Part shown: positions 8,471-59,495 of the stretch, piece after piece
Layout: each line of letters starts with the position of its first letter
Position numbering within the stretch: position 1 is the first letter of the stretch
Source of the DNA: Terriglobales bacterium
GTDB taxonomy: Bacteria > Acidobacteriota > Terriglobia > Terriglobales > SCQP01
Direction: 5' to 3'
DNA: 64,000 bases
NCBI GenBank assembly: GCA_050747745.1
Contig: JBOGKM010000040.1
Location: forward strand, 7,978 to 71,977
The notes under the pieces: model-generated
What the model was told of the DNA's origin: nothing
What the model saw: only the letters and a program-made list of their open reading frames with translations
Database searches by the model: none
Position numbers and translations under genes: made by a program

Positions 8471-9385
8471 ATGCCGTTTTCGATCCGCCGCGCGGCCACG
8501 GTTACGGCCGCAGCGATGTTGATCTTCACTGCCGGCGCCTGGGCGAGCCGCAAGGCCACCTACATCCGCCCGGTGATGCACACCTTCTCCGCCGCCGGTA
8601 TTCGCCAGATCGTGGTCCAAAACCTCGCCGGGCCGATCAGCGTGCAGACCGCTGCCGGCAATTCCATTCAGGTCACAATCCTCATCCACTCCGCCGGCGA
8701 TGACGCCGTTTTCGCGCGCACGCTATCCCAGCAACTCACGTTTACGGTCCAGAACATCAACGGCCAACTGCGCGTGATCGGCAATTATCCGCTCGATCAC
8801 TTTCGCAACTATGCCTACCCGATGAAAAGCATCGCCGGGATTCACGGCACCGATAAGAACGTTTATCAGGGCAAAAAGGTCTTCGTCCGCAACGTCTCCA
8901 GCGGCAAGGCAGTCGAGCTGTGGGCGGAAATCCGCATCACCACGCCGCCGCGGGTGGCGGTGGTGTTGCGCAATATTTATGGTGAGCTGAAGTTGCGCGG
9001 CGGCGTCCCCGCGCCCGGTGGAGGCAGCATGGACGGGTTCACCGACGCCGGCAACATAGAGGTCTATCGGCCGGAGTGGCAGTCAGTGAAGCTGCAAAAC
9101 GATTACGGCAAGGTGGATTTCACCGCCGGGCTCGGCGCGGCGCGCGACATCCACATCAAAACCGACGTGGGCAGTACCTACCTGTCCCTGCAGCCCGGCG
9201 CCGACCCGGTCATCATCGCCCACAAGGACTTGGGATTTTTGCACAACGACATCACCCAGGCGAGCTTTCATAAAGACAGCCAAGGCGATTCGGTGCTGAA
9301 ACTGGGAGATGGCAAAGGCGCTACCGTCACCATCGACATGAGCATCGGCAGCCTGCACCTTGCCACGATTGGGGCAGGGCAATGA
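8471..9385 (+). CDS. DUF4097-like beta-strand repeat exported protein (putative adhesin fold)
   Basis: Signal/TM MPFSIRRAATVTAAAMLIFTAGAWA. Repeated G.I.V...G.... beta-strand pattern (ISVQTAAGNSIQVTILI, GELKLRGG, GNIEVY, GKVDF, TDVGSTYLSL). Confidence 0.7.
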   Translation: MPFSIRRAATVTAAAMLIFTAGAWASRKATYIRPVMHTFSAAGIRQIVVQNLAGPISVQTAAGNSIQVTILIHSAGDDAVFARTLSQQLTFTVQNINGQLRVIGNYPLDHFRNYAYPMKSIAGIHGTDKNVYQGKKVFVRNVSSGKAVELWAEIRITTPPRVAVVLRNIYGELKLRGGVPAPGGGSMDGFTDAGNIEVYRPEWQSVKLQNDYGKVDFTAGLGAARDIHIKTDVGSTYLSLQPGADPVIIAHKDLGFLHNDITQASFHKDSQGDSVLKLGDGKGATVTIDMSIGSLHLATIGAGQ

Positions 9386-10130: not shown

Positions 10131-11689
10131 AGCCGAACAGCCCGCCGCGTGCGTTTCGTGAAAACTTGACCGCCCTGATCACGCGCACCGCGACGGATTT
10201 GCCGCCGGATGTGCGGGCGGCGATGAAGCGCGCGAGCGGGCGCGAGGTGGCGGAGCATCCCGAGGGAAATCAGGCCAGCCAGGCGCTGAGCATCATTGAC
10301 ACCAATATCCAGATGGCAGCCGGGGATGAAGGCCCGGTGTGCCAGGACACCGGCATGCCCACGTTTTTCGTGCAGACGCCGGTGGGATTCAACCAGATTC
10401 AGCTGCGGCGGGAGATTGTGGGCGCCATCGAGGAAGCCACACGGCGGGGCAAGCTGCGGCCCAACAGCGTGGATTCGCTGACCGGAACCAATAGCGGCAA
10501 CAACTTGGGGCCGGGCACGCCGGTGGTGCATTGGGAACAGTGGGAAAACGAGGAAGAAATTGAGATCAAGCTGCTGCTAAAAGGCGGCGGCTGCGAGAAC
10601 AAGAACATCCAGTATTCCCTGCCCTGCACGCTGGAGCATTTGGAGCGGGCGGGACGCGACCTGGACGGCATCCGGAAATGCATTCTGCACGCGGTGTGGC
10701 AAGCGCAGGGACAGGGGTGCGCACCGGGAGCGCTGGGGGTGGCCATCGGCGGGGATCGGACCTCGGGCTACGCGGCGGCCAAAGAGCAGCTTTTGAGACC
10801 GCTGGATGACGTCAACCCGGACGCGCGGCTGGCGGAGTTAGAAGCCTACGTGCTGGAGCGGGCGAATACACTGGGGATCGGCGCGATGGGATTCGGCGGC
10901 GGGGTGTCGCTGATCGGGTGCAAGGTTACAGCGCTGAACCGGCTGCCGGCCAGCTTTTTCGTTTCCGTCGCCTACGATTGCTGGGCGTACCGGCGGCGGG
11001 GGGTGGTGCTGGATGCGGCCACGGGCGAAGTGAAACGTTGGCTGTACGGCGATCCGCCGCTGAAGGGACAGGAGCCGAAGGCGCCGGCGAGGGTTGAGGC
11101 GCCGGCGGGCATCCGGCTGCGGGCGCCGATCAGCGAGGAACTGGTTCGCAGCCTGAAGGTTGGCGAGATGGTACTGATTTCCGGGGTGGTCTATACCGGA
11201 CGGGATGCGGTGCACGCGCACCTGATGCACCATGATCCACCGGTGGATCTGCAGGGCGCGGTGCTGTACCATTGCGGGCCGGTGGCGCGCAAGGATGCGC
11301 AGGGCAACTGGACGATCGGCGCCGCCGGCCCGACCACCAGCATCCGCGAAGAACCTTACGAGGCCGATTTGCTGCGGCGATACGGTATGCGGGTGATTAT
11401 CGGCAAAGGCGGCATGGGGGAGCGGACGCTGGAGGCGCTCAAGGAGTGCGGGGCGGTGTATTTGAACGCCATTGGCGGCGCGGCGCAGTATTATGGCCGG
11501 ACGATCAAGAAGGTGCGGGGCGTGCATCTGCTGGAGTTCGGCACACCGGAGGCGATGTGGGAGCTGGAAGTCGAGGATTTTCCCGCCGTGGTCACCATGG
11601 ACAGCCACGGGCATAGCCTGCATCAGTGGGTGGCGGCCGAGAGCGGCAAGGCGCTGCACGAGCTGGCGGGGATAGGGGATCGGGTTTAG
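10127..11689 (+). CDS. Class I (Fe-S) fumarate hydratase / tartrate dehydratase family, fused alpha+beta
   Basis: PVCQDTGMPTFFV, GGGCENKN and a C-terminal beta-subunit-like part (GVVYTGRDAVHAHL, GPTTS.R). The proposed GTG start at 10127 overlaps the upstream stop (GTGA), but the start is uncertain. Confidence 0.9.
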   Translation: MKPNSPPRAFRENLTALITRTATDLPPDVRAAMKRASGREVAEHPEGNQASQALSIIDTNIQMAAGDEGPVCQDTGMPTFFVQTPVGFNQIQLRREIVGAIEEATRRGKLRPNSVDSLTGTNSGNNLGPGTPVVHWEQWENEEEIEIKLLLKGGGCENKNIQYSLPCTLEHLERAGRDLDGIRKCILHAVWQAQGQGCAPGALGVAIGGDRTSGYAAAKEQLLRPLDDVNPDARLAELEAYVLERANTLGIGAMGFGGGVSLIGCKVTALNRLPASFFVSVAYDCWAYRRRGVVLDAATGEVKRWLYGDPPLKGQEPKAPARVEAPAGIRLRAPISEELVRSLKVGEMVLISGVVYTGRDAVHAHLMHHDPPVDLQGAVLYHCGPVARKDAQGNWTIGAAGPTTSIREEPYEADLLRRYGMRVIIGKGGMGERTLEALKECGAVYLNAIGGAAQYYGRTIKKVRGVHLLEFGTPEAMWELEVEDFPAVVTMDSHGHSLHQWVAAESGKALHELAGIGDRV

Positions 11690-11691
11690 GG

Positions 11692-12735
11692 ATGGAGTGC
11701 CTGAACTGCGGAGCGGAAATGGCGCGCGTCGAGATGCGCTCGGACAAGGCCAGCGTGAGCTACGACCTGTGCGAGAAGTGCGGAGGGCTGTGGCTGGATG
11801 CGGGCGAGATGGACAAGATCGCCTACCAAGTGAAGGGCAGCATTGAACAGAGCACACAGGAGCCGGTGGCCGAGACTGCGCGAAGGGTCCGCAAGTGCCC
11901 ACGCTGCGACAATGAGGACCTGGTTGCGGTTCATTTTCTGGATTGCACCGAAATTCTGCTACACCACTGCCGCGGCTGCGGGGGATATTGGCTGGACGGC
12001 GGCGAGCTGGAGCTGATGGACCGGGAGCTGGCGGCCGATGGTCCGGTCAAAAGCCACAGGTTTGCTGATTTCGTTTACAACCAGCACCTGCCGTACTGGA
12101 TAAAACGAGTGAGCAGCGCAGATGCGCGGCCGCGGCGGGAGGCGATGCCGATTGCGGGGGCGGAAAAGACCGGTCCGGCGCAAGGGCAATGCCCGGCGTG
12201 CGGCACACAGCTCGAGGGATATACGGCTTTCGGGATGAAGTTCTCGGGCTGCCCGGCCTGCAAGGGGATTTGGCTGTTGCGGGATGAACTGCGCGAGCTC
12301 AAGAACCAGGTCGAGGGCGGCAATCTGCGCTGGCTGAATGACGAGGTGGAAAACATTGAACAGGTGTGCGCGGCGGAGTGCAAGCGGCTGTGCCCATTGT
12401 GCGCCGGCCAGCGGCTGGAGGCGACGATGTTCGGAAAATCGTCGGCGGTGATTGATTGGTGCCCAAAATGCCGGGGCATGTGGCTGGACGGGGAGGAATT
12501 CGACGCGATCCGGGACTACTTGCACCAGGAGATGGAAAGTCTGCATTCGGGCGAGATCGAGAAAAGGCTGTTGCAGGCGGTGCGGAAGGTCTGGAGCGGC
12601 GGGGCCGAACCGCGACGCGAGGAGCTGCTGGATGCCAAGGCCACGATCCGGGCGCTGGTGCATGCGGGCATTTACGAGCACGTACGACTGGTCACGCGCA
12701 TGGTGGCGAACGCAAGGGCGGTTAGACCGTTCTGA
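11692..12735 (+). CDS. Protein composed of four tandem TFIIB-type zinc-ribbon modules (zf-TFIIB/PF13453-like)
   Basis: Four repeats of CxxC...CxxCxGxWLD: CLNC..CEKCGGLWLDAGEM, CPRC..CRGCGGYWLDGGEL, CPAC..CPACKGIWLLRDEL, CPLC..CPKCRGMWLDGEEF. ATG 11692 lies 2 nt after the fumarase stop. Confidence 0.8.
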   Translation: MECLNCGAEMARVEMRSDKASVSYDLCEKCGGLWLDAGEMDKIAYQVKGSIEQSTQEPVAETARRVRKCPRCDNEDLVAVHFLDCTEILLHHCRGCGGYWLDGGELELMDRELAADGPVKSHRFADFVYNQHLPYWIKRVSSADARPRREAMPIAGAEKTGPAQGQCPACGTQLEGYTAFGMKFSGCPACKGIWLLRDELRELKNQVEGGNLRWLNDEVENIEQVCAAECKRLCPLCAGQRLEATMFGKSSAVIDWCPKCRGMWLDGEEFDAIRDYLHQEMESLHSGEIEKRLLQAVRKVWSGGAEPRREELLDAKATIRALVHAGIYEHVRLVTRMVANARAVRPF

Positions 12736-19798: not shown

Positions 19799-21469
19799 GT
19801 GAAGCAACCTTTGCAATTGATTCCCTTGGGCGGGTTGGGCGAGTTCGGCCTGAACCTGATGGCCATCCGCTACGGCGAAGACATGGTGGTGGTGGACTGC
19901 GGCCTGATGTTTCCCGAGCCCGAGCTGCTGGGCATTGACATTGTGGTACCGGACGTAAGCTTTCTTGTCGAGAACCGGGCACAACTGCGGGGCATTCTGC
20001 TCACGCACGCGCACGAGGACCATATCGGCGCCCTGCCGTTCGTGATCGAGGATCTGAACGTTCCGATCTACGGCACGGAATTCACGCTGGCCATGGTGGA
20101 ATCAAAATTCAGCGAACATGGGCTGCTGGAGACGACCACACGGCAGGTGGTGCGGCCGCTGGAGCCGTTCACGCTGGGGCCGTTCACGGTGGAATATATT
20201 CACGTCACGCACAGCATCGTGGGAGCGTGCGCCATCGCCATTACCACGCCGGCGGGGGTAGTGATCCACACCGGGGATTTCAAGATTGACCCCACGCCCA
20301 CGGACAACCGTCCCTTCGACCTGCACACCTTCGCCGCCTACGGCAAGCGCGGGGTGCTGGCACTGCTGAGCGACAGCACCAACGTGGACCGGCGCGGCTA
20401 CACGCCCAGCGAACTGGCGGTGCGCGACCGCTTCGAGGACGTGTTCGCCTCGAGCGGCGCGGGGCGGCTGTACATCTGCTGCTTCACCAGCTCGATCCAT
20501 CGCATCCAGCTGGCGGTGGAAATGGCGGCGGCGTATGGGCGCAAGGTTTGCTTTCTGGGGCGCAGCATGGAGAACAGCACTGCGATTGCGCACCGGCTGG
20601 AGTTTTTGCACCTGTCCGACGGGATTCTCATCCGGCCGCAGGATTTGCGTTCGTTTCCGCGCGAGCAGGTGACGGTGGTGATTTCGGGCAGCCAGGCGGA
20701 GCCGATGTCGGCGCTGGCGCGGGCGGCGGTGAACAACCACAAGTTCGCCGAGGTCAGCGCGGGCGACACCGTGGTGCTGTCCAGCCGCATCATTCCCGGC
20801 AACGAGCGCGCCATTTACCGCATGATCAACCACCTGTTCAAACTGGGGGCGAAGGTGGTCTACGACACCGAGCAATATCCGCCGGTACACGTTTCCGGCC
20901 ACGCCAGCCAGGAAGAGCTGAAGCTGATGGCCAACCTGGTGCGGCCGCGGCATTTCATTCCCGTCCACGGGGAATTCCGGCAGCTTTCGCTGCACGCGCA
21001 ATTGGTGCGCAGCCTGCGCATCCCGAAGCTGGAGGCGCACGTGGCGGAAGACGGCGAGGTGCTGGAGTTGAGCGAGGATGGTTTGTCGCGCTCGGGCACG
21101 GCCGCCACCGGGCGGGTGTTCATTGATAGCGGCAGCCAGGACGAGGTGGCCGAGGATTTGATCGTGCGCGACCGGCGGCACCTGGCCGAGGATGGGATCG
21201 TACTGCCGATTCTGGCGATCAACAAGGCGACCGGGCGGGTGCAGAACGAGCCGGAGATCGTGACATCGGGGTTCGTGAATCCGGTGATGGCGGACGGGCT
21301 GCTGACGCGGGCGCGCGCGCTGGTGGCGGAATCGGTGGCGGCTGCGGGGCGGGAGGAATCGGGGGACTGGTCGCTGATCAAGGAGCGCATCCGGCGCGAT
21401 TTGCGCAAGTACTTGCAGGCACAAACCAACAAGCGGCCGCTGATCCTACCGGTTATTCTGGAAATATGA
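19799..21469 (+). CDS. rnj: Ribonuclease J
   Basis: IPLGGLGEFGLNLM, metallo-beta-lactamase LLTHAHEDHIGALP, and a beta-CASP region. GTG 19799, just after the rsmA stop, is preferred over the track start at 19763. Confidence 0.93.
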   Translation: MKQPLQLIPLGGLGEFGLNLMAIRYGEDMVVVDCGLMFPEPELLGIDIVVPDVSFLVENRAQLRGILLTHAHEDHIGALPFVIEDLNVPIYGTEFTLAMVESKFSEHGLLETTTRQVVRPLEPFTLGPFTVEYIHVTHSIVGACAIAITTPAGVVIHTGDFKIDPTPTDNRPFDLHTFAAYGKRGVLALLSDSTNVDRRGYTPSELAVRDRFEDVFASSGAGRLYICCFTSSIHRIQLAVEMAAAYGRKVCFLGRSMENSTAIAHRLEFLHLSDGILIRPQDLRSFPREQVTVVISGSQAEPMSALARAAVNNHKFAEVSAGDTVVLSSRIIPGNERAIYRMINHLFKLGAKVVYDTEQYPPVHVSGHASQEELKLMANLVRPRHFIPVHGEFRQLSLHAQLVRSLRIPKLEAHVAEDGEVLELSEDGLSRSGTAATGRVFIDSGSQDEVAEDLIVRDRRHLAEDGIVLPILAINKATGRVQNEPEIVTSGFVNPVMADGLLTRARALVAESVAAAGREESGDWSLIKERIRRDLRKYLQAQTNKRPLILPVILEI

Positions 21470-22377
21470 GAACCGCGCTGATGGTGATCCTCCTGGCGGT
21501 GGTGGCGGGTGCGCAGGCGACACCGCTGCACAAGGCAATCGCGCTGGGCAGGGAAACAGTGTATCTCAGCCCCGATCTCAGCAGCTCCAAGGTCGGCGGC
21601 TTGCAGCCGGGCGAACAGATCGGGGTGCAGGCGACCGGCCGCGGCTTCACGCAGATTTTTTCCGGTGTGAGCGGCTGGATTCCGGATCACGATTATGTGC
21701 AGCTGAGCGCGCCCAATGCGGCCAGCGTTCTCCTGGGCGCGGCGGTGAAGCAGGAACGTCTGGGGGAGCAGAACAACGACGATACGGCCACGGCGGCTGC
21801 GGTGCGGCTGTTTCTGGACATCTACAACTACCTTCCGGAATCGCCGCGGGCGGCGGAAGCGCTCTACCGCGGCGCGGCGCTGCGGTGGGAGACGAAAATC
21901 TCGGAAGAGCCGCTGGGCACGGCGCCGTCGAATCGGCTGTTTCCGGATGATTCGCTCCTGCACAAGGTCGAAAACAGATATCGCAATACGCCCTGGGCGG
22001 CGCAGGCGGCATTCCAGTTGATCATCGAGCATTTCACCTGCGGGGACTGGTTCCAGAAGCCCTCCTGCATCGGCAAGGAAGCCAAGCGCTACCAGGACTA
22101 CGTGAAAAAATACCCCTCCAGTCCGTCCGCACCAGAGGCCGCGTTCGATGCGCTCTACCGCGACGGTATTGCCTGGACGATCTACCGGCGCGCGAGCATA
22201 CACCAGGATGCCGGCAAGGCGGCGCAGTTCCAACAACAGGTGGCCCTGGATGCGGTACAGCTGCAGCAGCAATACCCGCACTCGGATTGGGCGGCGCGAG
22301 GAGCGTACCTGGCGTATCTGGTGGCGCACAACTCACCGCTGCCACTGCCGGCGAGTACGCCGCTGGGCGGGCCGTAG
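21466..22377 (+). CDS. Exported hypothetical protein (helical-repeat C-terminal part)
   Basis: ATG overlaps the rnj stop (ATGA). Signal peptide MRTALMVILLAVVAGAQA. Balanced composition. Confidence 0.7.
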   Translation: MRTALMVILLAVVAGAQATPLHKAIALGRETVYLSPDLSSSKVGGLQPGEQIGVQATGRGFTQIFSGVSGWIPDHDYVQLSAPNAASVLLGAAVKQERLGEQNNDDTATAAAVRLFLDIYNYLPESPRAAEALYRGAALRWETKISEEPLGTAPSNRLFPDDSLLHKVENRYRNTPWAAQAAFQLIIEHFTCGDWFQKPSCIGKEAKRYQDYVKKYPSSPSAPEAAFDALYRDGIAWTIYRRASIHQDAGKAAQFQQQVALDAVQLQQQYPHSDWAARGAYLAYLVAHNSPLPLPASTPLGGP

Positions 22378-33126: not shown

Positions 33127-33210
33127 GCTATGCTGGTCGAGACCGCCACAACATCCCCTGCGTGTGGGGGACGGGCGCGCACCGGCGCCTTCTCTTTCCC
33201 GTTGCCAGCT

Positions 33211-34263
33211 ATGAAAACCGGCATTATCGGCTTTCCCCAAGTGGGAAAAACTTCCTTGTTCAGCATGCTGACCGGCGCCGAGGTGCAAGCGGGACGACGG
33301 GAAGAACGGGTGGGAGTGGCGATAGTGCCGGACCAGCGGCTGGATCAGTTGGCGGAGCTATTCCAGCCGCGCAAGCTCACCCACGCCACGATCGAGCTGA
33401 GCGAGACGGGGGCGCTGACGCCGGAAACGCTGCGCGACGGCAGCGGCATCGCGGGACTGCGGACAGCGGATGCGCTGGCGCAGGTGGTGCGGGCGTTCGA
33501 GCGGATGGAGCCGGACCCGCCGTCGGCGGATGTGCGCCGGCTGGAATTCGACATGATCGTGAGCGACTTAGGGCAGGTGGAGAAGCGGCGTGAGCGCGTA
33601 GCCAAGGATCTGAAAAAGCAGCGCAGCACGGCGCTGCTGGAGGAAGCGGGGATTCTGGAGCGGATGCAGCAGCACCTGGAGGGGGAGCAGCCGCTGCGCA
33701 CGCTGCCGCTGACGCCGCCGGAGCGGAAGACGACGCGGGGATTCCAGTTTCTCAGCCAGAAACCCATTCTTTATGTCATCAATGTGAGCGAAGCAGAGGC
33801 AGCGGAGCTGGACACGGCCGTGGCGCGACACGGGCTGGAGGAGGCGCTGGCGGCGCCGCTGACGGGAGCGGTGGCGATCTGCGCGAAGATCGAGGCGGAA
33901 ATCGCGGGGCTGCCGGCCGAGGAGGCGGCGGGATTTTTGTCCGGCTACGGTTTAGCCGAGCCGGGCGTGGCGCGGCTGGCGCGGGCGATCTACCGGCTGC
34001 TGGGCCAGATTTCGTATTTCACCGCGGGCGAGGACGAGTGCCGGGCGTGGACGGTGGCGGAGGGCACGGCGGCAGTGGAGGCGGCGGGGGTGATCCACAC
34101 CGATCTGTCCAAGCATTTCATCCGCGCCGAGGTCATTGGCTGGCAGGAGCTGCTGGAGCTGGGATCGGAAGCGGCGGCGCGGCAGCAGGGGAAGATGCGG
34201 CTGGAGGGAAAAGACTATATCGTGCAGGATGGGGATGTGATGCACATCCGGCACTCGGGGTAG
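33211..34263 (+). CDS. ychF: Redox-regulated ATPase YchF
   Basis: MKTGIIGFPQVGKTSLF P-loop and a C-terminal TGS-like domain (FIRAEVI...GKDYIVQDGDVMHIR). Confidence 0.93.
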   Translation: MKTGIIGFPQVGKTSLFSMLTGAEVQAGRREERVGVAIVPDQRLDQLAELFQPRKLTHATIELSETGALTPETLRDGSGIAGLRTADALAQVVRAFERMEPDPPSADVRRLEFDMIVSDLGQVEKRRERVAKDLKKQRSTALLEEAGILERMQQHLEGEQPLRTLPLTPPERKTTRGFQFLSQKPILYVINVSEAEAAELDTAVARHGLEEALAAPLTGAVAICAKIEAEIAGLPAEEAAGFLSGYGLAEPGVARLARAIYRLLGQISYFTAGEDECRAWTVAEGTAAVEAAGVIHTDLSKHFIRAEVIGWQELLELGSEAAARQQGKMRLEGKDYIVQDGDVMHIRHSG

Positions 34264-34265
34264 GA

Positions 34266-34853
34266 ATGACGGAAACGCAGCAATGTCAGCAGTGTGAGGC
34301 GGAGATTCCGGGCACGGCGCAATATTGTCCCGCCTGCGGGGTACGGCTGCCGCAAACGCCGGAGCCGGCGCCGCTGCCGACGCCGCGGCGGCGCTGGGGC
34401 GGCACCCAGGTGGTCATTTGGTTTCTGGTGATCGCGGTGGTGATGGGGGTGCTGTTCATGCTGGGGGTGGTATATTTCATCCGCCACACCGCCATTGTGA
34501 CGACCAACAAGAATGGCGGCCGCATTGAAGCGCCCTACGGTACGTTGAGCCACAGCCGGAATCCGGCACAACTGGCGCGCGGCCTGGGATTGGATCTGGT
34601 TCCGGGCGCAGTCGGAGTGAGCGGCACGCAGGCGGATTTGAACCACAGCGTGGTGGTGTCGATCGAGTTCCGCAGCACGGCCAAGCCTGCCGCGATCATG
34701 AACTTCTACCACGTCCGCTACCCGGATGCTTCGGTGCAAGCGGAGGGCGCGGTAGAGACGCTGGTGCAGTTGAATCCGCGCGACACGATGACCATCGTGG
34801 CCGAGCCCGAACCCAAAGGGACGCGGATTCTGGTCAACGACGTAAGGCACTGA
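34266..34853 (+). CDS. Zinc-ribbon domain membrane protein
   Basis: MTETQQCQQCEAEIPGTAQYCPACG (CxxC..CxxC), one TM (VVIWFLVIAVVMGVLFMLGVVYFI), then an extracytoplasmic domain. Confidence 0.7.
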   Translation: MTETQQCQQCEAEIPGTAQYCPACGVRLPQTPEPAPLPTPRRRWGGTQVVIWFLVIAVVMGVLFMLGVVYFIRHTAIVTTNKNGGRIEAPYGTLSHSRNPAQLARGLGLDLVPGAVGVSGTQADLNHSVVVSIEFRSTAKPAAIMNFYHVRYPDASVQAEGAVETLVQLNPRDTMTIVAEPEPKGTRILVNDVRH

Positions 34854-34890
34854 GGATGGCGGTGCTAAGCTGGGACCAGGAGGGAAAGCG

Positions 34891-35451
34891 ATGGCAATAA
34901 ACTGGAGCCGGGACGTGGATGCGGCACTGGCGCAGGCGGCGGAGCAGAAGCGGCCCATGCTGTTGGATTTCAGCGCGGCGCCAGCGTGAGGGGCCTGCGC
35001 TCGGCTGGAGGCCGAGTCGTATGCCGATGCCGCGACGGCGAAGTTCATCGAGGCGAACTTCGTGCCAGTGGAGGCGCATATCAAGGAGCACCCGGGCTGG
35101 TTCGGGCGTTTCGAGGCGGTGTGGACGCCGACGGTACTGCTGCTGGACAGCAAAGGGAAAGAGCGGGTGCGGCTGGAAGGGTATGTGAGCCGCACCGACT
35201 TCAACGCCTGGCTGCAAACGGGTCTGGGGCGCATGGCGTTCGTGCGCAAGCAGTTCGACGAGGCGGAGGGGTGGTACGGGCAGGTCGCCGCGGAGTCATC
35301 GCAATTTGCGCCGGAGGCGACCTACTGGCGGTCCGTGGCGCACTACAGCGGCACGCACGACCACACGGCGCTGGCGCAGGTGGAAGCCGAGCTGCGGGAG
35401 AAATTTCCGGGGAGCGTGTGGGCGGAAAAAGCGCTACCTTGGCGGCAATAG
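34891..35451 (+). CDS. Thioredoxin-fold protein with in-frame TGA at the first Cys of CxxC (candidate selenoprotein, U-G-A-C); alternatively a nonsense-disrupted pseudogene
   Basis: ATG 34891 follows AGGAGGG. The translation is MAINWSRDVDAALAQAAEQKRPMLLDFSAAPA-TGA(34987-34989)-GACARLEAESYADAATAKFIEANFVPVEAHIKEHPGWFGRFEAVWTPTVLLLDSKGKERVRLEGYV..., all in a single frame to TAG 35449-35451. The track shows only 35062-35451. Confidence 0.65.
35000..35016 (+). promoter_or_regulatory. Candidate bacterial SECIS hairpin
   Basis: CTCGGC-TGGAG-GCCGAG forms a 6-bp perfect stem with a 5-nt G-containing loop. The stem starts 10 nt and the loop 16 nt after the TGA. Confidence 0.5.
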
Positions 35452-35452
35452 G

Positions 35453-37681
<2,229 letters not shown>

Positions 37682-37769: not shown

Positions 37770-38039
37770 TTACTTGCGCAGTCCCAGCTTCTGGATCAGT
37801 GCGCGATAGCGATCCAGGTGCTCGCGCTTGAGATAGTCGAGCAGGCGGCGACGCTTGCCCACCAGCAGCAGCAGGCCGCGGCGGGAGTGGTGATCCTTAG
37901 CGTGGGTTTTGAAGTGCCCGGTGAGGTATGCGATGCGGTCGGTTAGCAGCGCCACTTGCACTTCCGGAGAACCGGTATCGGTGGGATGGATGCGGTAGGT
38001 GCCGACGAGATTAGTCTTGGCTTCAGATGTGGTCGCCAT
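37770..38039 (-). CDS. rpsO: 30S ribosomal protein S15
   Basis: 89 aa: [40 protein letters not shown]. Confidence 0.97.
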
Positions 38040-38110
38040 GCGTGAGGCGGGGCTCCTGTTTTTCTCTCATAGGTATAGGAACCATTAATGTACCACAGTT
38101 CGCCTGGCGG

Positions 38111-39682
38111 CTAGAGGCCGCCACCGCCTCCATTGCCGCTGCCGGGGGCCGGATGCACGATGACGTACTGGCCGCCGGGCTGGATACCGCCGATATAAAT
38201 GCGCAGCATGATGGGCTGGGTGGGCGGGAGCTTTTGCAGCTCGCGGGTGACAGCGCCGGCGCTGGGGGTGGGGACGCGGTTCACGCTGGTGATGACTTCG
38301 CCGGGCTGAATGAAGCCGCTGTTGTAGGCAGGCGAGCCGGGCTGGACGTAGGTGATGATCGCGCCCTGAATGCCGCTGGGGATCTGGTTGCGCTCGCGCT
38401 GCTGCGGGGTGAGGGTTTCCAAGCGGACGCCGAGATGGGCGCCGGTGGTGTTGGAAGCGGTATTGGGTCCGTGCGCCGGGGAGACGTGCTCGCCAGGAGG
38501 ATAGCCCAGGATCGCAGTCAGCGACATGGGCCGGCCGTTGCGCAGAATGCCGAGCTTGACCTGATGGCCTGGCGCAACTTCGCCGGTGGCGATTTGCAGT
38601 TCGGTGGCGCTGTGGATGGGCTGGCCGTTGAAGTTGACGATGACGTCACCGTTTTTGAGGCCGGCTTTGGCGCCAGGATCGCCGGAGGTGATGGTGGAAA
38701 CCAGCGCGCCCTGGGTGTTGGGCGAAACATGGAAGAAGGGCGCGGTGTCTGGCGTGAGATCTTCGATGTTGATGCCGAGAAAGCCGCGGATGACCTTGCC
38801 GTGCTTGATCAGCGCCTCGGTCACGGGCTGGGCGATGGCGCTGGGGATGGCGAAGGATTCGCCGCTGAAGCTGCCGGTGGAAGTGAAGATGAAGGCGTTG
38901 ACGCCAATCACCTGGCCGAGCACGTCGACCAGCGGGCCGCCCGAGTTGCCGGGATTGATGGCGGCATCGGTCTGGATGTAGTCGCCGGGCTGGCGCAGGT
39001 TGCTGATGGCGCCGGGGGGACGGCGGTTGAGGCCGCTGATGATGCCGTGGGTCATGGTGAAGTTGAGGCGGAAGGGATTGCCGAAGGCAAATACCAGATC
39101 GCCCTGTTGGAGGTGGTTGGAGTTGCCCCAGGGCAGATTGGAAAGGCCGGTGGCGGGGATTTTGATGACCGCCAGATCGGTGAGCGGATCGGTGCCAACC
39201 ACCTTGGCCTCGAAGCTGCGCGAGTCGGTGAGAGTGACGCGGATGTTGGTAGCGTCTTTGACGACGTGGTTGTTGGTGACGATGTAGCCATCAGGGGAGA
39301 TGACGATGCCGCTGCCGAGGCCCTGCTCGTAATGGGGACGGCGGGGGAACTGGCCGAAGAACTGCGACAACGGATTGCCGGGCGGAATGCCCTGACCCTG
39401 CTCCTCGTCGCTGGCGGATTCGTGCGCGGTCACCTGCACCGTCACCACGGCCGGCTCGACCCGCTTGGCCAGCTCTTCCTGCTCTTTGGTGAGCTCGGAC
39501 AAGTCCGGCACCTGGTGGGCGCTGAGGGCCGGCTCGGTCGAGCGGATGATGCCGGAGAAGGCCGGATCCTGATCGCTGTGGGTGCGATAAAACGCCATGG
39601 CACCGACCACGCCGACAATCACGAGCAGGACGGCGAAGGCGCGGCCGCTCACGTACAGGCCAGAGAAGCGGGACGAAGGCAT
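38111..39682 (-). CDS. Do/DegP/HtrA-family periplasmic serine endopeptidase with two PDZ domains
   Basis: ATG 39682 after AAGGAGAA. Catalytic triad context TNNHVV / DLAVIKI / GNSGGPLV. Two PDZ-like segments. C-terminal tail [10 protein letters not shown]. Confidence 0.93.
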
Positions 39683-39847
39683 GGCGTGGTTCTCCTTGGA
39701 CACCGCAGGCCGCGGCGATGCCGTTGCCGGCGGACTGCACTTCCATATTGGACGCAAAAGACGAAGCTGAAGCGACCCAAAAAGCGCGCCCGGCACTATG
39801 CTATACTGAGCCAGCCGCGGGAGAAACCCGCAGCGCAGGAGAACACT

Positions 39848-40387
39848 ATTCGAGACACCCGACCGCGCCGCATCCCCGAACCCCGAACCCGCATTAATGA
39901 ACGCGTCCGCGCCCGCGAGGTGCGGGTGATTGATGAATTGGGCGCCCAGTTGGGGATCATGCCGCCGCAAGAGGCGCTCACGCTGGCACGGCAGCGGACG
40001 CTGGATCTGGTAGAAGTTGCTCCCAGCGCCAACCCGCCAGTCTGCCGGATCATGGATTTCGGCAAATACCAATATCAGATGGAAAAGAAGGCGCGGGAGG
40101 CCAAGAAGAATCAGAAAAACATCGTCATCAAGGAAGTGAAGTTCCGGCCCAATACCGACGACCACGACTACTCGTTCAAGAAAAACAACGTGCTGCGCTT
40201 TCTTGAGGAAGGGGACAAGGTCAAAGCCGTGGTGCAGTTTCGGGGCCGGGAAATTACGCACAAGGAGATTGGCTTTCAGTTGATCGAAAAACTTCTGCAG
40301 GAAGTCAGCCCGCAAGCCAACGTCGAGTTCCGACCGCGGCTGGAAGGCAACTCGCTGACCGCCATTCTGGCCCCCAAGAAAGCCTGA
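39848..40387 (+). CDS. infC: Translation initiation factor IF-3, probable ATT start
   Basis: [23 protein letters not shown]..., C-terminal [17 protein letters not shown]. No in-frame ATG/GTG is suitably placed upstream. ATT 39848 lies 4 nt after AGGAGAA (39837-39843). Non-canonical infC starts are well established. Confidence 0.9.
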
Positions 40388-40396
40388 AGCAAAATT

Positions 40397-40594
40397 ATGC
40401 CGAAGCTGAAATCGCATCGCGGCGCCGCCAAACGCTTCCGTTCCACCGGAAGCGGCAAGATTGTGCGCGGACATTCGGGCGCGCGCCATATTCTCACCAG
40501 CAAGGCACGCAAACGCAAACGCAAGCTGGACCTGGATACGCTGATCTCACCCGCCGATCAGAGGCGGGTACGGCGGATGATTCCGTACCAGTAA
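40397..40594 (+). CDS. rpmI: 50S ribosomal protein L35
   Basis: [23 protein letters not shown]....H. Confidence 0.95.
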
Positions 40595-47452: not shown

Positions 47453-48778
47453 CTACGCGGACTCCTGGCGCGGCGCCGGGCGCCACAGGAAGGTTACGCA
47501 GGATGCGGCCAGCAGAATTACTTCCGGATCGATCGCCAGCCGATAGCGTGGAATCGCCTCGGTGAGGTAATAGGCGCAGGGGATCAGCAGTGGAAAGGCC
47601 GCCACAATCCACACGCCTGGCCGCCGCCTGTGCCACAACCACAACCAGCCTGCCAGCGCACCCAGGCCGCTGAGGAGATCGGCGAGCAGAACATAGCGAT
47701 CCATCCCACTGAGCCGCCGCCGCTGCCACTGGCCGCGCGCCAGAACGCGCCATGGCCGCGGTGCTCCACCCGACCAGAACGCCCAAAAACGCAGCCAGGC
47801 GCGCTCGGCCGTGCGCCGCGAATGGGCGGCCATATATTCCACGGCCGCGCGAAATTTGGCGCGCATGTATGGGATTTCGCCCTGACGGAGAAACAGCGCT
47901 CGTTGCCCGGCATCGTCCAGCGGATGTTGCTGCCCGTGCCAGGGCACGCTTGCACCTGCATTATTACCCAGCCACAGCGCCAGCCCCAGGTCGCTGCGCA
48001 CCGGCACCCAGGCGTGCAGCGTCGCGCGATTGCGCAGCGTCCAGGGGAGCACGCACAGCGCCGCCGCCGCCAGTCCCAGCACGGCGGTGCGCCACTGCCG
48101 CGCCGCCAGGAAGAACAGCACCGGCAGCACTGCCGCGAACACCGGGTTGGTCAACAACGTCAAGCCCCACAATAAGCCGAAGAGAATCCAGGGCACGGCG
48201 TTTGCGCGCCGCGGATCGGCCGCGCGCAGGCGCAGCGTGGCCCACACCAGCGTCACACCCAGCAGCGCCGAAAGACAGCCGTTCCACATGCTCTGGTAGG
48301 TGAGAAGAATAGCATTGGGATACACGGCCCAGATGCAGCAGGCGATCAGTCCGGCGCGGTGGCCCGCGAGTGCGCGCGCGGCCGCATAAAGGGGCAAACA
48401 CACCAGCGTGGCGAAGAGGATGTTCAGGCCTACGGCGGCCACAAACGCGCCAAACGAATCGGGACCGAAGATGCGGAACACGCCCGCCAGCAGCGTGGGA
48501 TAGACGGGCGCCACCCACGCGGTCGGGCCGCTGGGCACGCGCAGGGGTGAACTGAAACCCTGGCCCGTGGCCAAAGCATAGGCTACGTTGCTGCTTTCAA
48601 AGGAAAACGGCGCCAGCGCCAGCGCGCGCTCGGCATGGTGGGCGATGAAGCTCCAAGCGAAGATCAGGCGCAGCGCCGCCGTTGCTGACAGCGCCGCCCA
48701 GAAGGCCGGCACCCGGTGCGCGCCCGGCCGCGGGTGGGTCCGCCGGTCTGGAGCGAGCCGCTCTCCTGCAACGCTCAT
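47453..48778 (-). CDS. Polytopic membrane glycosyltransferase, ArnT/PMT_2-like (GT-C fold)
   Basis: About 10 predicted TM segments. The first-loop pattern FESSNVAYALATGQGFSSP...VAPVYPTLLAGVF resembles COG1807-type enzymes. Family assignment is tentative. Confidence 0.65.
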   Translation of the reverse strand: MSVAGERLAPDRRTHPRPGAHRVPAFWAALSATAALRLIFAWSFIAHHAERALALAPFSFESSNVAYALATGQGFSSPLRVPSGPTAWVAPVYPTLLAGVFRIFGPDSFGAFVAAVGLNILFATLVCLPLYAAARALAGHRAGLIACCIWAVYPNAILLTYQSMWNGCLSALLGVTLVWATLRLRAADPRRANAVPWILFGLLWGLTLLTNPVFAAVLPVLFFLAARQWRTAVLGLAAAALCVLPWTLRNRATLHAWVPVRSDLGLALWLGNNAGASVPWHGQQHPLDDAGQRALFLRQGEIPYMRAKFRAAVEYMAAHSRRTAERAWLRFWAFWSGGAPRPWRVLARGQWQRRRLSGMDRYVLLADLLSGLGALAGWLWLWHRRRPGVWIVAAFPLLIPCAYYLTEAIPRYRLAIDPEVILLAASCVTFLWRPAPRQESA

Positions 48779-50989: not shown

Positions 50990-53900
50990 TTATCCGAGAG
51001 CTTCGACGACCAGTGCCGCCTGCTCCTGTTGATGGCGGCGGAGCGAGCCGGTGGCGGGGCTGGGACTTTCCTTGCGGCTCACGTGCGCCAGCGCGGCGGT
51101 AGCGGCCAGCAGCGCGCGCAGGCGCGGCTCGGCGAACGACCACGCGCCCTGGTTTTCCGGCTCTTCTTGTACCCAGCAGCAGTCGCTGAGCTGAGGATAG
51201 CGCGCCAACTCGCGGCCCAATGCCTCCGCCGGGAACGGATACAACTGTTCCACGCGGATGATGGCCGGCTCGCCGGCCTGCCTAGTTTTGCGCGCCTTGG
51301 TCAGGTCGTAATAAACCTTGCCCGAGCACAGCAGCGCACGGCGCGTCTGCGCCGGCGCGAGCGCGTCACCGATCACCGGCTGGAAGCTTCCGCTGGTGAA
51401 CTCGGCAAAGGGCGAGGCCACCTCGGGATGGCGCAGCAGGCTTTTGGGCGTGAGCAGCACCAGGGGGCGGCGGGGGCGCCGCAGGCCCTGATCGCGCAGC
51501 AGATGAAAATACTGCGACGCGGTGGTGCAGTTGGCGATGCGCCAGTTGTTTTCGGCCGAAAGCTGCAGGAAGCGCTCCAGCCGTGCGCTGGAATGCTCCG
51601 GACCCTGGCCTTCGAAGCCATGAGGCAGCAGCAGCGTGAGGCCGCTGGTGCGGGACCATTTGGTCTCTGACGAAGAGAGAAACTGGTCAATGATGACCTG
51701 TGCGCCGTTGGCGAAATCGCCGAACTGGGCCTCCCAGAGCACCATCGCCGTGGCATGCGACATGGCGTAGCCGAACTCGAAGCCCATGGCCGCTTCTTCC
51801 GACAGCAGGCTATCGTAGATCTCCACCGGCCGCTGCGCGGCATCGAGATGGGCCAGCGGAATGTAGAACGCCGCGGTTTCGAAATCGTACAGGAGGGCGT
51901 GGCGCTGGCTGAAGGTGCCACGCCCGGTGTCTTGGCCGCTCAGGCGGACGGGCACGCCTTCCAGCGCCAGCGAACCCAGCGCCAGCGCCTCGGCGAGAGA
52001 CCAATCCACCGCCCCGCGCGTGGCAATGGCCTGCGCCCGGCGGCTGATGAAATTTTTCAGTTTGGGATGGAGATGAAACCCGTCCGGCAGAGCCGTCAAG
52101 CGCTCGCCGATCTGCGCCAGCGTGGCCTCGGCCACGCCGGTTGCGGGGGCAAACGGCACGGCCTCGGGTTCCGGCACTGCCGGTGGCACCGGCTGCGCCG
52201 CCGCATCGCTGAGCGCCTGCCGCGTCGCCTGGCGCTCGCTGTCGGCCTCGGCTTCGCTCAGCTGCCCGGCGCGTACCAGCGCGGCAGCGTAAAGGACACG
52301 CACGGAGGGATGCTGATCAATATTGCGGTACATGACCGGCGAGGTCAGGCTGGGATCGTCGGCCTCATTGTGCCCGTGGCGCCGATAGCAGACCATATCC
52401 ACCACCACGTCTTTGCGGAACTCCCGCCGGAAGGCGTAGGCGAGCTCCATGGCCCGCACGACGGCTTCCGGATCGTCGCCGTTGACGTGGAAGATCGGCG
52501 CCTGGATGGTGCGCGCGATGTCGGTGCAATAGAGTGAGGAACGAGCACCTGCGGGGGCGGTGGTAAAGCCGATCTGGTTGTTGATGACGAAGTGCATCGT
52601 GCCGCCGGTACGATAACCGCCCAACTGCGACAGGTTCAACGTTTCCGCCACCACGCCTTCGCCCGCCATGGCCGCATCGCCGTGAATGAGGATCGGCAAC
52701 ACCTGCTGGCCGCGCTCGTCGCCGGAGCGCCCGCGCAGGTCCTGGCGCGCGCGCGCGCTGCCCTCGACCACAGGATCGACCTCTTCGAGGTGGCTGGGGT
52801 TGTTGATCATCTCCACCGGCAGGCGCACGCCCTCAGGCGTAAGGTGGGCGCCGCGCGCACCGAGATGGTATTTCACATCGCCCGAGCCGTCGACGCTTTC
52901 CGGGTCCTGATCCTCGAACTTGGAAAACATCTCGTTCATGCTCAGCCCGAGCACGTTGACCAGCACGTTCAACCGTCCGCGGTGCGCCATCCCGAGCACG
53001 ATTTCCTGCGCGCCATCGCGGCTGGCCAGATTCAGGAACGTGTCCAGCGCCGGAATCATCGCCTCGGCTCCCTCCAGGGAAAAGCGCTTGTGGCCGACGA
53101 AGCGCGCCTGCAGCAAGTGTTCGAGTTCCTCCGCCTGCGTGAGTTTGGCCAGTGCCCGCCGCTGCTGCCCGGCGCTCAGTCCGCGGCGAGCGGAAGGCGG
53201 TTCCATGTGCTCCTGTAGCCATTGCCGCTCTTCCGGGCGCTGCAGGTGCATGAACTCCAGCGTCAGCGTACCGCAGTAGGTGGCATGCAGCACCTGCAGA
53301 ATATCCGCCAAGCTGCAGGTCGGCCCGGCGTCGGGGCCGCGCCCGGCGAGCGGGCACAAAAACTGCTCTTGCATGTCGGCCGGTCCGAGGCCGTAGTGCT
53401 GGGGTTCTAACTCGGGATGCGGCTTGGTTTCCTGCATGCCCAATGGATCCACGTGGGCCAGCAGATGGCCGCGCACGCGGAAGTTATGCACCAGTTGAAA
53501 TACCGCCGCCTGCTTGCGCACCGTTTCCAGATCCGGTGCGCCAGGAGCGAAAAGCGCTGCCGGGGGCGCGGGTGCTCCGGCGCCCGCGATGGCGGGCGCC
53601 AGGCGCAGCAGGGGAGCCAGACTGATGCCCAGATCGGCGTAGATGCGCTGGTAGAAGCCGTCGGCACCGTTGAGCAGCGCGTCCACCCGCGCCAGAAAAG
53701 CGCCCGACTCGGCCCCCTGCACAATGCGATGATCGTAGGTACACGACAGCGTGAAAGATTTGCCCACACCCAGCACCCGCAGCGTGGATTCGGCAACATG
53801 TTCAAAACCTGCCGGCCATGCCACCACTCCGGCGGCGATGTTGGCCGCCTGTCCCGCTAACAGTCGCGGCACCGAAGCGCGCGTGCCCAGCGTGCCCGGG

Positions 53901-54586
53901 TTGGTCAGGCCGATGGTCGAGCCCTGCAGATCATCCGGCGAAATTTTGCCGCTGCGCGCCGCCTGGACGAGGCGTTCGCACTCGGCAGAGAAATCGGTAA
54001 AGTTGCGGCTCTCCGCCTGCTTCACCACAGGCACCAACAGCGAGCGCCCTCCGGCGCGCTCCACATCCACCGCCAGACCCAGGTTCACGTGTCCGCGTTC
54101 AATGCGGCTGGGCCGCCCGTCAGCGATCGTGTAGGCGCGATTCAGCGCTGGGAACGCCTCCAGTGCGCGCACCATGGCCCAGGCCAGCAGTGGCGTGATC
54201 GCCAGCTTTTTGCCCTGCGGCGCCAAGGTCTGGTTCATCTGACGGCGGTTCAGCTCGAGCAACTCGACCGCGATCGAGCGCTGCGATGTCGCCGTCGGGA
54301 CCGCAAGGCTGGCTTCCATGTTGGCGGCCAGCCGCTCCGCCGGCCCGCTAAGCGCGCTCACCGTGTCGCCAGGCAGCAGAGCCATCGGCGGCGCCGCAGC
54401 GGCGTGGGCGGCCGGAGCGGCGGCGTGTCCATTGCCGGCCAGGCGGTCAAAAATGCTGCGCCAGGCTTCCGGCACGGCTTGCGAGTTGGCCCGATACAAC
54501 CGCCAGAGTTCGCGCCCATAGCCTCCGTTGGCGCCCAAGGTTTCCAAATAAGTTTCGATCTGTGCGTCGGGTTCGCTGAGCGGCAT
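50990..54586 (-). CDS. sucA: 2-oxoglutarate dehydrogenase E1 component fused to an N-terminal E2-type acyltransferase catalytic domain (Kgd/OdhA architecture)
   Basis: Residues ~90-330 form a 2-oxoacid dehydrogenase acyltransferase catalytic domain ending in SCTYDHRIVQGAESGAFL. The remainder is E1o (GMAHRGRLNVL, HGDAAMAGEGVV, transketolase-like C-terminal part). No lipoyl domain was seen. Confidence 0.93.
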   Translation of the reverse strand: MPLSEPDAQIETYLETLGANGGYGRELWRLYRANSQAVPEAWRSIFDRLAGNGHAAAPAAHAAAAPPMALLPGDTVSALSGPAERLAANMEASLAVPTATSQRSIAVELLELNRRQMNQTLAPQGKKLAITPLLAWAMVRALEAFPALNRAYTIADGRPSRIERGHVNLGLAVDVERAGGRSLLVPVVKQAESRNFTDFSAECERLVQAARSGKISPDDLQGSTIGLTNPGTLGTRASVPRLLAGQAANIAAGVVAWPAGFEHVAESTLRVLGVGKSFTLSCTYDHRIVQGAESGAFLARVDALLNGADGFYQRIYADLGISLAPLLRLAPAIAGAGAPAPPAALFAPGAPDLETVRKQAAVFQLVHNFRVRGHLLAHVDPLGMQETKPHPELEPQHYGLGPADMQEQFLCPLAGRGPDAGPTCSLADILQVLHATYCGTLTLEFMHLQRPEERQWLQEHMEPPSARRGLSAGQQRRALAKLTQAEELEHLLQARFVGHKRFSLEGAEAMIPALDTFLNLASRDGAQEIVLGMAHRGRLNVLVNVLGLSMNEMFSKFEDQDPESVDGSGDVKYHLGARGAHLTPEGVRLPVEMINNPSHLEEVDPVVEGSARARQDLRGRSGDERGQQVLPILIHGDAAMAGEGVVAETLNLSQLGGYRTGGTMHFVINNQIGFTTAPAGARSSLYCTDIARTIQAPIFHVNGDDPEAVVRAMELAYAFRREFRKDVVVDMVCYRRHGHNEADDPSLTSPVMYRNIDQHPSVRVLYAAALVRAGQLSEAEADSERQATRQALSDAAAQPVPPAVPEPEAVPFAPATGVAEATLAQIGERLTALPDGFHLHPKLKNFISRRAQAIATRGAVDWSLAEALALGSLALEGVPVRLSGQDTGRGTFSQRHALLYDFETAAFYIPLAHLDAAQRPVEIYDSLLSEEAAMGFEFGYAMSHATAMVLWEAQFGDFANGAQVIIDQFLSSSETKWSRTSGLTLLLPHGFEGQGPEHSSARLERFLQLSAENNWRIANCTTASQYFHLLRDQGLRRPRRPLVLLTPKSLLRHPEVASPFAEFTSGSFQPVIGDALAPAQTRRALLCSGKVYYDLTKARKTRQAGEPAIIRVEQLYPFPAEALGRELARYPQLSDCCWVQEEPENQGAWSFAEPRLRALLAATAALAHVSRKESPSPATGSLRRHQQEQAALVVEALG

Positions 54587-58446: not shown

Positions 58447-58523
58447 GGAAAGAATGTGGCCGGTTTGCGCGCGCCGCGCAAGTAGCCTAAAAGGACCATA
58501 GACTATATATGTGGCGTGTCATC

Positions 58524-59495
58524 ATGAGCTATCGCCAAATGAGGTCTGAGGATGTTGGCGCTTGCGTGAAGCTGATCGGGCAGCACCCGGTCATTGGACC
58601 GCGCTATGGCCATTCGCTGGGCGAACTGGGGCGAGCCTGGCAGCGGTTGCTCGGCAGCAGCGCGCTGAAGGCGGTTGTATTTGAGGAAGGGGCGCGGCTG
58701 TGGGGCGTGGGGGTTTCGGCTTTCGTACAGGAAAGCTTCTTGCGGGAAATCAAGCAGCTGCCCTTGTTCTGGATCGGACCGGGATTGGCGCGGCGCATCG
58801 CCGCCGGGGAATCGCCGCTGCTGAGCGAGCGGCAGATCGAGGAGGCGAATGCTTGCGGAGGGTTGAGCGCGGTGACCTGGGAGGGTTGCATTGGCGCTGA
58901 ATTTGCGAAGCGCTCCGAGCTCTATCACGAGTTGATGACCGCGTTTCTGGAACAACACCGCGGCTATTTGTGGAAAGAGCAGATCGCCTCGCAGGCGGAA
59001 AGCGCGGGACGGCTGCGGTGGACGCTGCATTCCGGCGGGCGCATGTGGGATGCGGGGAAGGGATGCTATACGGCGGGAGTGGGAGCGGGCCTGACGGCGA
59101 TCGCGCGGGCCCCGCATGTGGTGGGCATTACGCGTGATATGGATCGCGGCCGCCCCAGTTCCTGGGTGGGTGCGCTGTTCGATTATCATGCGCCCCGGCT
59201 GGGGCTGAGCCGTGGCGAGCAACGGCTATTGCTAGCCGCGTTCGAGACCGGCGCCACAACGGACCGGGAATTGGCAGCCGCGTTGCGCCTTTCGCTGCCC
59301 AGCGTTAAAAAAATGTGGCTGTCGGCTTATGCCCGCGCCGCTGCGGTGCTGCCGGAGATGTTGCCGGGCCGGGCAATGGAAGGGAGGGATGCGATGGAGC
59401 GCGGAAAGGAGAAAAAGCGGCGGCTGTTAGCGTATGTGCGCGCGCATCCGGAGGAGCTGCGGCCGGTGGCAAAAAAGCTGCTGGCCTCCGCATGA
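58524..59495 (+). CDS. Hypothetical regulator: uncharacterised N-terminal domain plus C-terminal LuxR/GerE-like HTH
   Basis: LSRGEQRLLLAAFETGATTDRELAAALRLSLPSVKKMWLSAYARA resembles the GerE HTH. The N-terminal ~230 aa are unassigned. ATG 58524 is preferred. Confidence 0.55.
   Translation: MSYRQMRSEDVGACVKLIGQHPVIGPRYGHSLGELGRAWQRLLGSSALKAVVFEEGARLWGVGVSAFVQESFLREIKQLPLFWIGPGLARRIAAGESPLLSERQIEEANACGGLSAVTWEGCIGAEFAKRSELYHELMTAFLEQHRGYLWKEQIASQAESAGRLRWTLHSGGRMWDAGKGCYTAGVGAGLTAIARAPHVVGITRDMDRGRPSSWVGALFDYHAPRLGLSRGEQRLLLAAFETGATTDRELAAALRLSLPSVKKMWLSAYARAAAVLPEMLPGRAMEGRDAMERGKEKKRRLLAYVRAHPEELRPVAKKLLASA

Follow-up and report, generated by a model that had tools for sequence, protein, structure and literature searches.

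The "thiol:disulfide interchange protein" family of bacterial selenoproteins is listed with a PF13098 domain, a UxxC motif and WP_011366075.1 as its reference (Table 1 of PMC13188914). The family was predicted by Kryukov and Gladyshev in 2004 (as reported in PMC13188914), and in 2006 it had three listed members, all of them from Deltaproteobacteria (PMC1794560). We infer that the reference protein, whose sequence is printed in the deep-Sep supplement (PMC12013277), is that of Geobacter metallireducens, as PMC1794560 lists the family for that species. Another selenoprotein of this general type is the Sec-containing thioredoxin (PF00085, UxxC), which is recorded as experimentally verified (Table 1 of PMC13188914).

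Here, we analyze a gene in a 64,000-nucleotide stretch of DNA from a Terriglobales bacterium (the window, by which we mean this stretch at its full length). Altogether our results make it very likely that positions 34891-35451 on the forward strand encode a single 186-residue cytoplasmic thioredoxin-fold selenoprotein, in which an internal UGA is read as Sec by means of a hairpin in the message and which acts as a selenol/thiol oxidoreductase.

Relation to described families

Residues 3-185 of the window protein align by BLASTP with residues 4-186 of WP_011366075.1 at 32% identity (E 2e-33), with U33 on U33, and a second published member of the family aligns equally well (E 2e-33). This end-to-end alignment, with matching Sec columns, places the gene in a known, computationally predicted selenoprotein family. 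The two share a length of about 190 residues, a thioredoxin fold joined to a helical C-terminal domain, Sec at residue 33 within a UxxC motif that follows ..LLDF..., a WTPT cis-Pro loop, and the motifs APEA.Y and YP.S.W. They differ around the active site, which reads APA-U-GAC in the window protein and NPG-U-IGC or FDG-U-LGC in the family. The hosts differ as well, since the present gene is found in Acidobacteriota MAGs and not in Deltaproteobacteria like the members listed in 2006, and identity to the reference is only 32%. The marks of membership in this family (a PF13098 score, an in-frame UxxC TGA and full-length Sec-to-Sec homology) were all found, as were two of those of a bacterial selenoprotein gene in general, namely agreement with the bacterial SECIS criteria and the existence of both Cys and TGA homologues elsewhere.

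Other families are less good matches. The Sec-containing thioredoxin resembles the window protein in its thioredoxin fold, its UxxC motif and the use of Sec for the nucleophilic Cys, but the window protein scores 23.3 bits against a PF00085 cut-off of 23.5, has an extra C-terminal domain and carries a different local motif. The best NCBIfam match is the VPGUxxT thioredoxin-like (seleno)protein type 2 (NF041383, a model of 287 positions), with which it shares a Thioredoxin_7-like N-terminal region and a Sec that comes first in the active site. We rejected membership in this family because 39 bits fall far short of the required 275, the match is confined to residues 3-61, and the motif is APAUGAC and not VPGUxxT. 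The Trx7/PDZ (seleno)protein NF041199 was likewise set aside (17.7 bits against 300, no PDZ match, UxxC and not CxxU), as was DsbD, which has a membrane core with alpha and gamma periplasmic domains and of which the gamma-like thioredoxin domain alone matches a protein of 186 residues (NF001419, 32.8 bits against 330). Nothing relevant came up when the literature was searched for APAUGAC and FSAAPAU as motif strings.

Domains and fold

The earlier note had recognized a thioredoxin-like layout in the translation and, with U read as C, three Pfam families now score above their gathering thresholds: Thioredoxin_2 (PF13098; residues 16-108, 45.5 bits against 27), Thioredoxin_7 (43.2 against 27) and Thioredox_DsbH/DUF255 (33.9 against 27). 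An AlphaFold model was made for the Cys form P0004, which is 62% identical to the window protein (pLDDT 87, pTM 0.86). In this model the CxxC motif lies between strand beta-1 (23-26) and helix alpha-1 (34-44) of a thioredoxin fold. Together, Pfam, the model and Foldseek place the thioredoxin-fold domain at about residues 3-100 (34897-35190, +), and it includes the cis-Pro loop W78-T79-P80-T81 (35122-35133, +), whose WTPT is invariant in homologues. The remainder of the protein, about residues 101-186 (35191-35448, +), is an all-helical, TPR-like domain according to the model, Foldseek and a weak Pfam match to TPR_16. Its helices in the P0004 model span 101-118, 122-135, 142-157 and 160-173, with short ones at 178-182 and 184-195. 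The N-terminus (MAINWSRDVDAAL...) is not hydrophobic, and for this reason we take the window protein to be cytoplasmic.

Among the closest solved folds are the gamma domain of DsbD (PDB 2fwg and 1uc7), DsbH (2ju5) and thioredoxins. The DsbD gamma match (Foldseek E 2e-06, 28% identity, target TM-score 0.75) superimposes with an rmsd of about 2.1 A over 119 columns and has CxxC in the same place. DsbD gamma, however, is a Cys-containing periplasmic domain of a membrane electron transporter, whereas the window protein is a stand-alone protein with a helical tail, a Sec and neither signal peptide nor membrane segment. The E. coli chaperedoxin YbbN/CnoX (3qou) similarly combines a thioredoxin domain with a TPR-type helical domain, and Foldseek aligns it over its full length (201 columns). 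At 14% identity and an rmsd of 11.5 A, the arrangement of its domains must differ, and YbbN is longer, at 282 residues. YbbN is a holdase that has SxxC in place of CxxC.

An in-frame TGA conserved across relatives

The frame runs from an ATG at 34891 to a TAG at 35449-35451 (187 codons including the stop), and a Shine-Dalgarno-like AGGAGGG (34878-34884, +) lies 6 nt 5' of the start. Its sole internal stop is a TGA at 34987-34989, so that the peptide spanning the stop reads FSAAPA-U-GAC-ARLEAESY in translation. The earlier note gave the same start, end and internal stop, and all of these coordinates are borne out. It had also placed the TGA in the column of the first, nucleophilic Cys of a CxxC motif, with a Cys three residues on. 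The homologues agree with this assignment: the redox motif is U33-G-A-C36, distant homologues have Cys in the position of U33, and the presumed resolving residue Cys36 (TGC, 34996-34998, +) is Cys in all 81 sequences of our alignment, encoded by both TGC and TGT.

A scan of one genome per species revealed relatives in 223 genomes, from which we took the best 80 loci, representing 79 genomes. In each of these 80 loci, at 52-78% protein identity, a TGA occupies the same column and is the sole stop to interrupt some 190 codons of open frame, an agreement well beyond what chance would give. These identities exclude the possibility that the loci are copies of one contaminating sequence. By label, 77 of the 80 are from Acidobacteriota, including Terriglobia, Blastocatellia/Pyrinomonadaceae, Bryobacteraceae and Thermoanaerobaculia, and one each is from Binatia, Deltaproteobacteria and Limnocylindrales. 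Every homologue of the window protein comes from a MAG or a metagenome; two of the loci, L031 and L053, lie on closed chromosomes (OY969419.1 and OY970256.1). The start Met is shared (codon 1 is M in 98%). Upstream of the TGA, L24, S28, A29, A30 and P31 are 100% conserved, yet each is written with four to six codons. This combination of fixed amino acids and free codons indicates that ribosomes read the 32 upstream codons in frame with the downstream part. On the other side, residues 34-57, between the TGA and an internal GTG, are conserved to the same degree as the rest of the protein.

Two further observations concern the distribution of these genes. The three loci outside the Acidobacteriota (L005, L020 and L036, 58-65% identity) come from MAGs that bear the labels Candidatus Binatia, Candidatus Limnocylindrales (Chloroflexota) and Deltaproteobacteria. 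Their divergence does not exceed that seen among the Acidobacteriota copies, which points to horizontal transfer or mis-binning. In addition, the MAG that contains the closest relative of the window locus, L001 (JBOGKQ01), carries a second, paralogous copy (L021:3001-3516) with the same TGA and hairpin. This copy is 65% identical to the window protein and has a divergent N-terminus before ..ILLVFSAAPA.., in which we found no clear start codon.

A SECIS-like hairpin downstream of the TGA

From the TGA onward, 81 sequences could be aligned without gaps, and RNAalifold predicts one hairpin in this alignment, with columns 13-19 paired with columns 25-31. In the window it occupies 34999-35017 (+), 10 nt 3' of the TGA, with a stem of 35000-35005 against 35011-35016 that is capped by the apical loop UGGAG (35006-35010) and closed by a G-U pair (34999/35017); in the window sequence the lower stem can reach 34996-35021. 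Compensatory changes are present at two stem pairs (CG to or from UA in 15 sequences, GC to or from AU in 3), and 92.8% of cells are paired, as compared with 19-41% in slid registers. In covariation score and in percentage paired, the hairpin surpasses all 500 shuffles and every slid register, while double changes affect no more pairs than they do in shuffles (425/500). Synonymous variation tells a similar story: entropy falls to 0.0-0.3 bits only at Ala37 (GCT), Arg38 (CGG), Leu39 (CTG) and Ala41 (GCC), and is 1.0-2.4 bits at all other four- and sixfold codons within the first 100.

Published criteria for a bacterial SECIS comprise a loop N1-G-[G|U]-N-N2 and a stem of 4-16 bp (PMC13188914, Fig. 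2), together with a UGA-loop spacing of 16-37 nt and an MFE of at most -7.5 kcal/mol (PMC13188914). The hairpin described here agrees with all four, having a 5-nt loop UGGAR, an upper stem of 6-7 bp, a spacing of 16-17 nt and a core MFE of -11.8 kcal/mol in the window; the MFE is -7.5 kcal/mol or lower in 80 of the 81 sequences. The region is GC-rich, and folded alone it gives a z-score of only -1.0, with 36 of 200 shuffles as stable, so that the case for the hairpin is a comparative one. Rfam searches at the gathering threshold and, over 34880-35120, at E <= 10 recovered neither a SECIS family nor any other match to the hairpin; this is uninformative, as the Rfam library used contains no family that fits this element.

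Cys homologues provide a second view of this element. When a profile was run against 1.84 billion representative proteins, 18,077 matched at E <= 0.001, 98 of them at E <= 1e-30, and realignment of 269 proteins taken from both protein searches yielded 289 aligned stretches. The N-terminus is absent in 192 of these. CxxC is present in 54, in line with the expectation that Cys orthologues would place Cys in the TGA column, and TGC was verified at the DNA level for eight Cys-form proteins; each Cys form is one protein, about 190 aa long. Among four close TGC forms, the hairpin is still present, nearly intact, in three (L084:154-744; L087:501-785 and L088:446-730; L089:501-1085). In the fourth (L085:501-1070, with L086) it has partly decayed, to GCA CGG CTT with a loop UUGAU. 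Distant Cys forms keep the ARL(D/E)AE peptide in other codons and have no hairpin; L092, for example, reads GCC CGC CTG GAC GCT GAG and folds at -1.0 kcal/mol. Loss in distant forms and decay in one close form is the pattern expected of a fossil SECIS, and from these sequences we read the hairpins of the close Cys forms as probable remnants left by a recent single-base change from Sec to Cys.

An alternative reading is that the hairpin has some other role, such as in mRNA stability or translational pausing, and that its position behind the TGA is coincidental. Such a role would account for its retention in the close Cys forms (L084, L087/88 and L089), which is the weakest point in the RNA case for a SECIS, and sits comfortably with the unremarkable z-score of the single sequence. 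It does not explain why position, spacing, loop sequence and energy all fit the bacterial SECIS consensus, or why the hairpin is missing from distant Cys forms that share the peptide and is being lost in L085/86. We therefore consider this alternative improbable and favor the model in which the hairpin serves as a SECIS.

Genomic context and Sec machinery

The gene sits amid housekeeping genes in the window. Upstream are ychF (33130-34263) and a zinc-ribbon gene (34266-34853); downstream, pnp (35453-37681, -) and rpsO (37770-38039, -) are followed by a degP-like gene, infC, pheS and pheT. The order sigma factor, ychF and zinc-ribbon gene is common only to the closest relative, L001, and no neighbour gene is conserved across the family. 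In the absence of a conserved partner the context offers no functional clue.

ARAGORN, Pfam scans and six-frame tblastn detected none of selA, selB, selD or tRNA-Sec in the 64-kb window. The wider searches were also negative: ARAGORN found no tRNA-Sec in the window and 60 related loci, and E. coli SelA, SelB and SelD had no six-frame tblastn match in 576 kb comprising the window and roughly 0.5 Mb of sequence flanking related loci. The selenoprotein gene is thus not linked to the Sec machinery. A cultured member of the Terriglobales, Occallatibacter riparius (Acidobacteriaceae), is a Sec user with three known selenoproteins (PMC12013277).

Several other reading frames in the window merit mention. 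An ORF of 1198 residues (50990-54586, -) joins the catalytic domain of a 2-oxoacid dehydrogenase acyltransferase (E2; residues 75-306) to a 2-oxoglutarate dehydrogenase E1, an arrangement that we take to resemble the OdhA/Kgd-type fusion of Actinobacteria. A second (59580-62900, +; 1106 residues) carries Sortilin/Vps10 and BNR/Asp-box repeats and is probably a secreted beta-propeller glycoside-binding protein. A third (11626-12735, +; 369 residues) contains four Zn_ribbon_TFIIB-type zinc-finger repeats (Pfam E 1.8e-35) with no other recognizable domain. ORFs of 300-440 residues with coding-like GC3 and no Pfam match at E <= 1e-5 lie at 47453-48778 (-), 58509-59495 (+), 7425-8390 (-), 8471-9385 (+) and 21466-22377 (+). 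Long Pfam-less ORFs also run antisense to or overlap real genes (38027-40387, +; 38111-40489, -; 36221-37657, +), the genes overlapped by such ORFs being the selenoprotein gene, pnp, the degP-like gene and infC, as is typical at 65% GC. One of 344 residues (34215-35249, -) lies antisense across the selenoprotein gene and could mislead a gene caller. Finally, mechanical joining of ORFs across TGA codons gave 35 candidates in the window, of which the selenoprotein gene alone is credible; the candidate at 588-1343, for example, is an Arg/Ala/Ser-rich off-frame translation.

Mis-annotation of the gene and the reading of its UGA

Public records handle this gene poorly. The earlier note had predicted that gene callers would split or truncate it, and that is what an identical public contig (GCA_973402415.1) shows: its gene calls are a 32-aa fragment (window 34891-34989) and a 129-aa ORF. 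The latter corresponds to 35062-35451 (+), begins at a GTG that encodes Val58, and is an annotation artefact and not a separate gene. These 129 codons are also all that the mechanical ORF list of the window contains, as had been stated. The best database match to the window protein is this same fragment (P0001, "hypothetical protein ACRD04_03015 [Terriglobales bacterium]"), and most homologues in protein databases are N-terminally truncated, at 129-150 aa. GenBank/PGAP and ENA/Logan gene calls accordingly list 129-150-aa "hypothetical" or "thioredoxin fold" proteins without the active site. No NCBIfam model, when run against the window protein, covers the APA-U-GAC clade, which explains why PGAP truncates its members.

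The "full-length" JGI entries, among proteins P0002-P0019, have a W in the Sec column (FSAAPAWGAC). WxxC occurs in 24 of the 289 aligned stretches, and we read it as TGA mistranslated to Trp; in the one entry whose DNA was checked (L081:124-699) the codon is TGA, which adds to the 80 loci with TGA in other genomes. On the short contigs behind these JGI proteins the TGA had been taken for a sense codon, hence the Trp.

These Trp entries could be taken at face value. The UGA might be decoded as an amino acid other than Sec, by Trp, Cys or Gly read-through or suppression or through a genetic code that assigns TGA an amino acid, and the lack of Sec machinery within the window would also be in keeping with this. 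Yet of the ordinary stops in the window TGA is the most frequent, ending 13 of the 25 Pfam-supported ORFs, so that there is no genome-wide reassignment of the codon. The recoded TGA is confined to a single column, that of the redox Cys, the hairpin fits the SelB-dependent bacterial SECIS model, and the homologous listed selenoprotein has Sec at the very same residue. A non-Sec reading of this codon thus appears a shade less probable still than another role for the hairpin.

The output of the gene callers could also be correct as it stands, with a 32-residue peptide ending at the UGA and a 129-residue protein translated from the GTG at 35062. Such a protein would be without the redox motif and the strand beta-1 and helix alpha-1 on either side of it; residues 34-57 are as well conserved as the rest, and the Cys forms are undivided, at about 190 aa. 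We regard two separate products as distinctly unlikely, and slightly more so than a non-Sec reading or another role for the hairpin.

The least credible explanation, with a probability close to nil, is the nonsense pseudogene that the earlier note had raised as its alternative: a single TGY-to-TGA change (here TGC to TGA) would suffice to make one and public annotation does treat the gene as broken, but decay is contradicted by a TGA kept in all 80 of the best loci at 52-78% identity with no second stop or frameshift, by conserved amino acids with free synonymous change on both sides of the TGA and by the conserved SECIS-like hairpin. No further disruption was found 3' of the TGA in any of the 80, although such damage in relatives would be the sign of a decaying gene. 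The note's principal proposal, an unannotated UxxC selenoprotein, is instead supported by the Cys homologues, the universal TGA of these loci, the hairpin and the intact downstream frames.

A model for Sec insertion and catalysis

How a selenoprotein of this kind would be made and would act can be outlined mostly from what is established about selenoproteins in bacteria and about oxidoreductases with a thioredoxin fold. We envision a scenario in which the hairpin (35000-35016) acts as a bacterial SECIS and, while the ribosome pauses at the UGA, brings SelB-GTP-Sec-tRNA(Sec) to it. SelB, carrying Sec-tRNA(Sec), would bind the hairpin loop, and the UGA 16-17 nt upstream would be decoded as Sec33. 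In the folded protein, Sec33 would face the WTPT loop from the N-terminal end of helix alpha-1, where it could attack a substrate disulfide or another oxidised sulfur species, and the mixed selenenylsulfide would then be resolved by Cys36. Binding of a partner or substrate protein is probably the task of the helical, TPR-like C-terminal domain.

Implications

The family to which this gene belongs has been predicted since 2004. What is new is its host range, which takes in many Acidobacteriota MAGs, and its systematic mis-annotation. The main value of the finding is therefore one of annotation. The JGI entries carry a false Trp onward into protein databases and profiles, and an NCBIfam-type model for the clade would mend hundreds of Acidobacteriota records. 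In addition, the alignment of about 80 SECIS sequences, with its compensatory pairs, synonymous constraint and fossil copies, could help to train bacterial SECIS models. The biological value is modest: the gene leaves our understanding of how selenoproteins work unchanged and extends a family from a few Deltaproteobacteria to many soil Acidobacteriota.

A broader reading, which we put forward tentatively and with chances somewhat short of even, is that the APA-U-GAC clade is a distinct, Acidobacteriota-centred subfamily present in at least 223 species-representative genomes, mis-annotated throughout and with a SECIS that is near-invariant across classes. If this is true, the close TGC forms with an intact hairpin would record an ongoing replacement of Sec by Cys, Sec use would be far commoner in soil Acidobacteriota than inventories suggest, and this gene would provide a simple marker of the trait.
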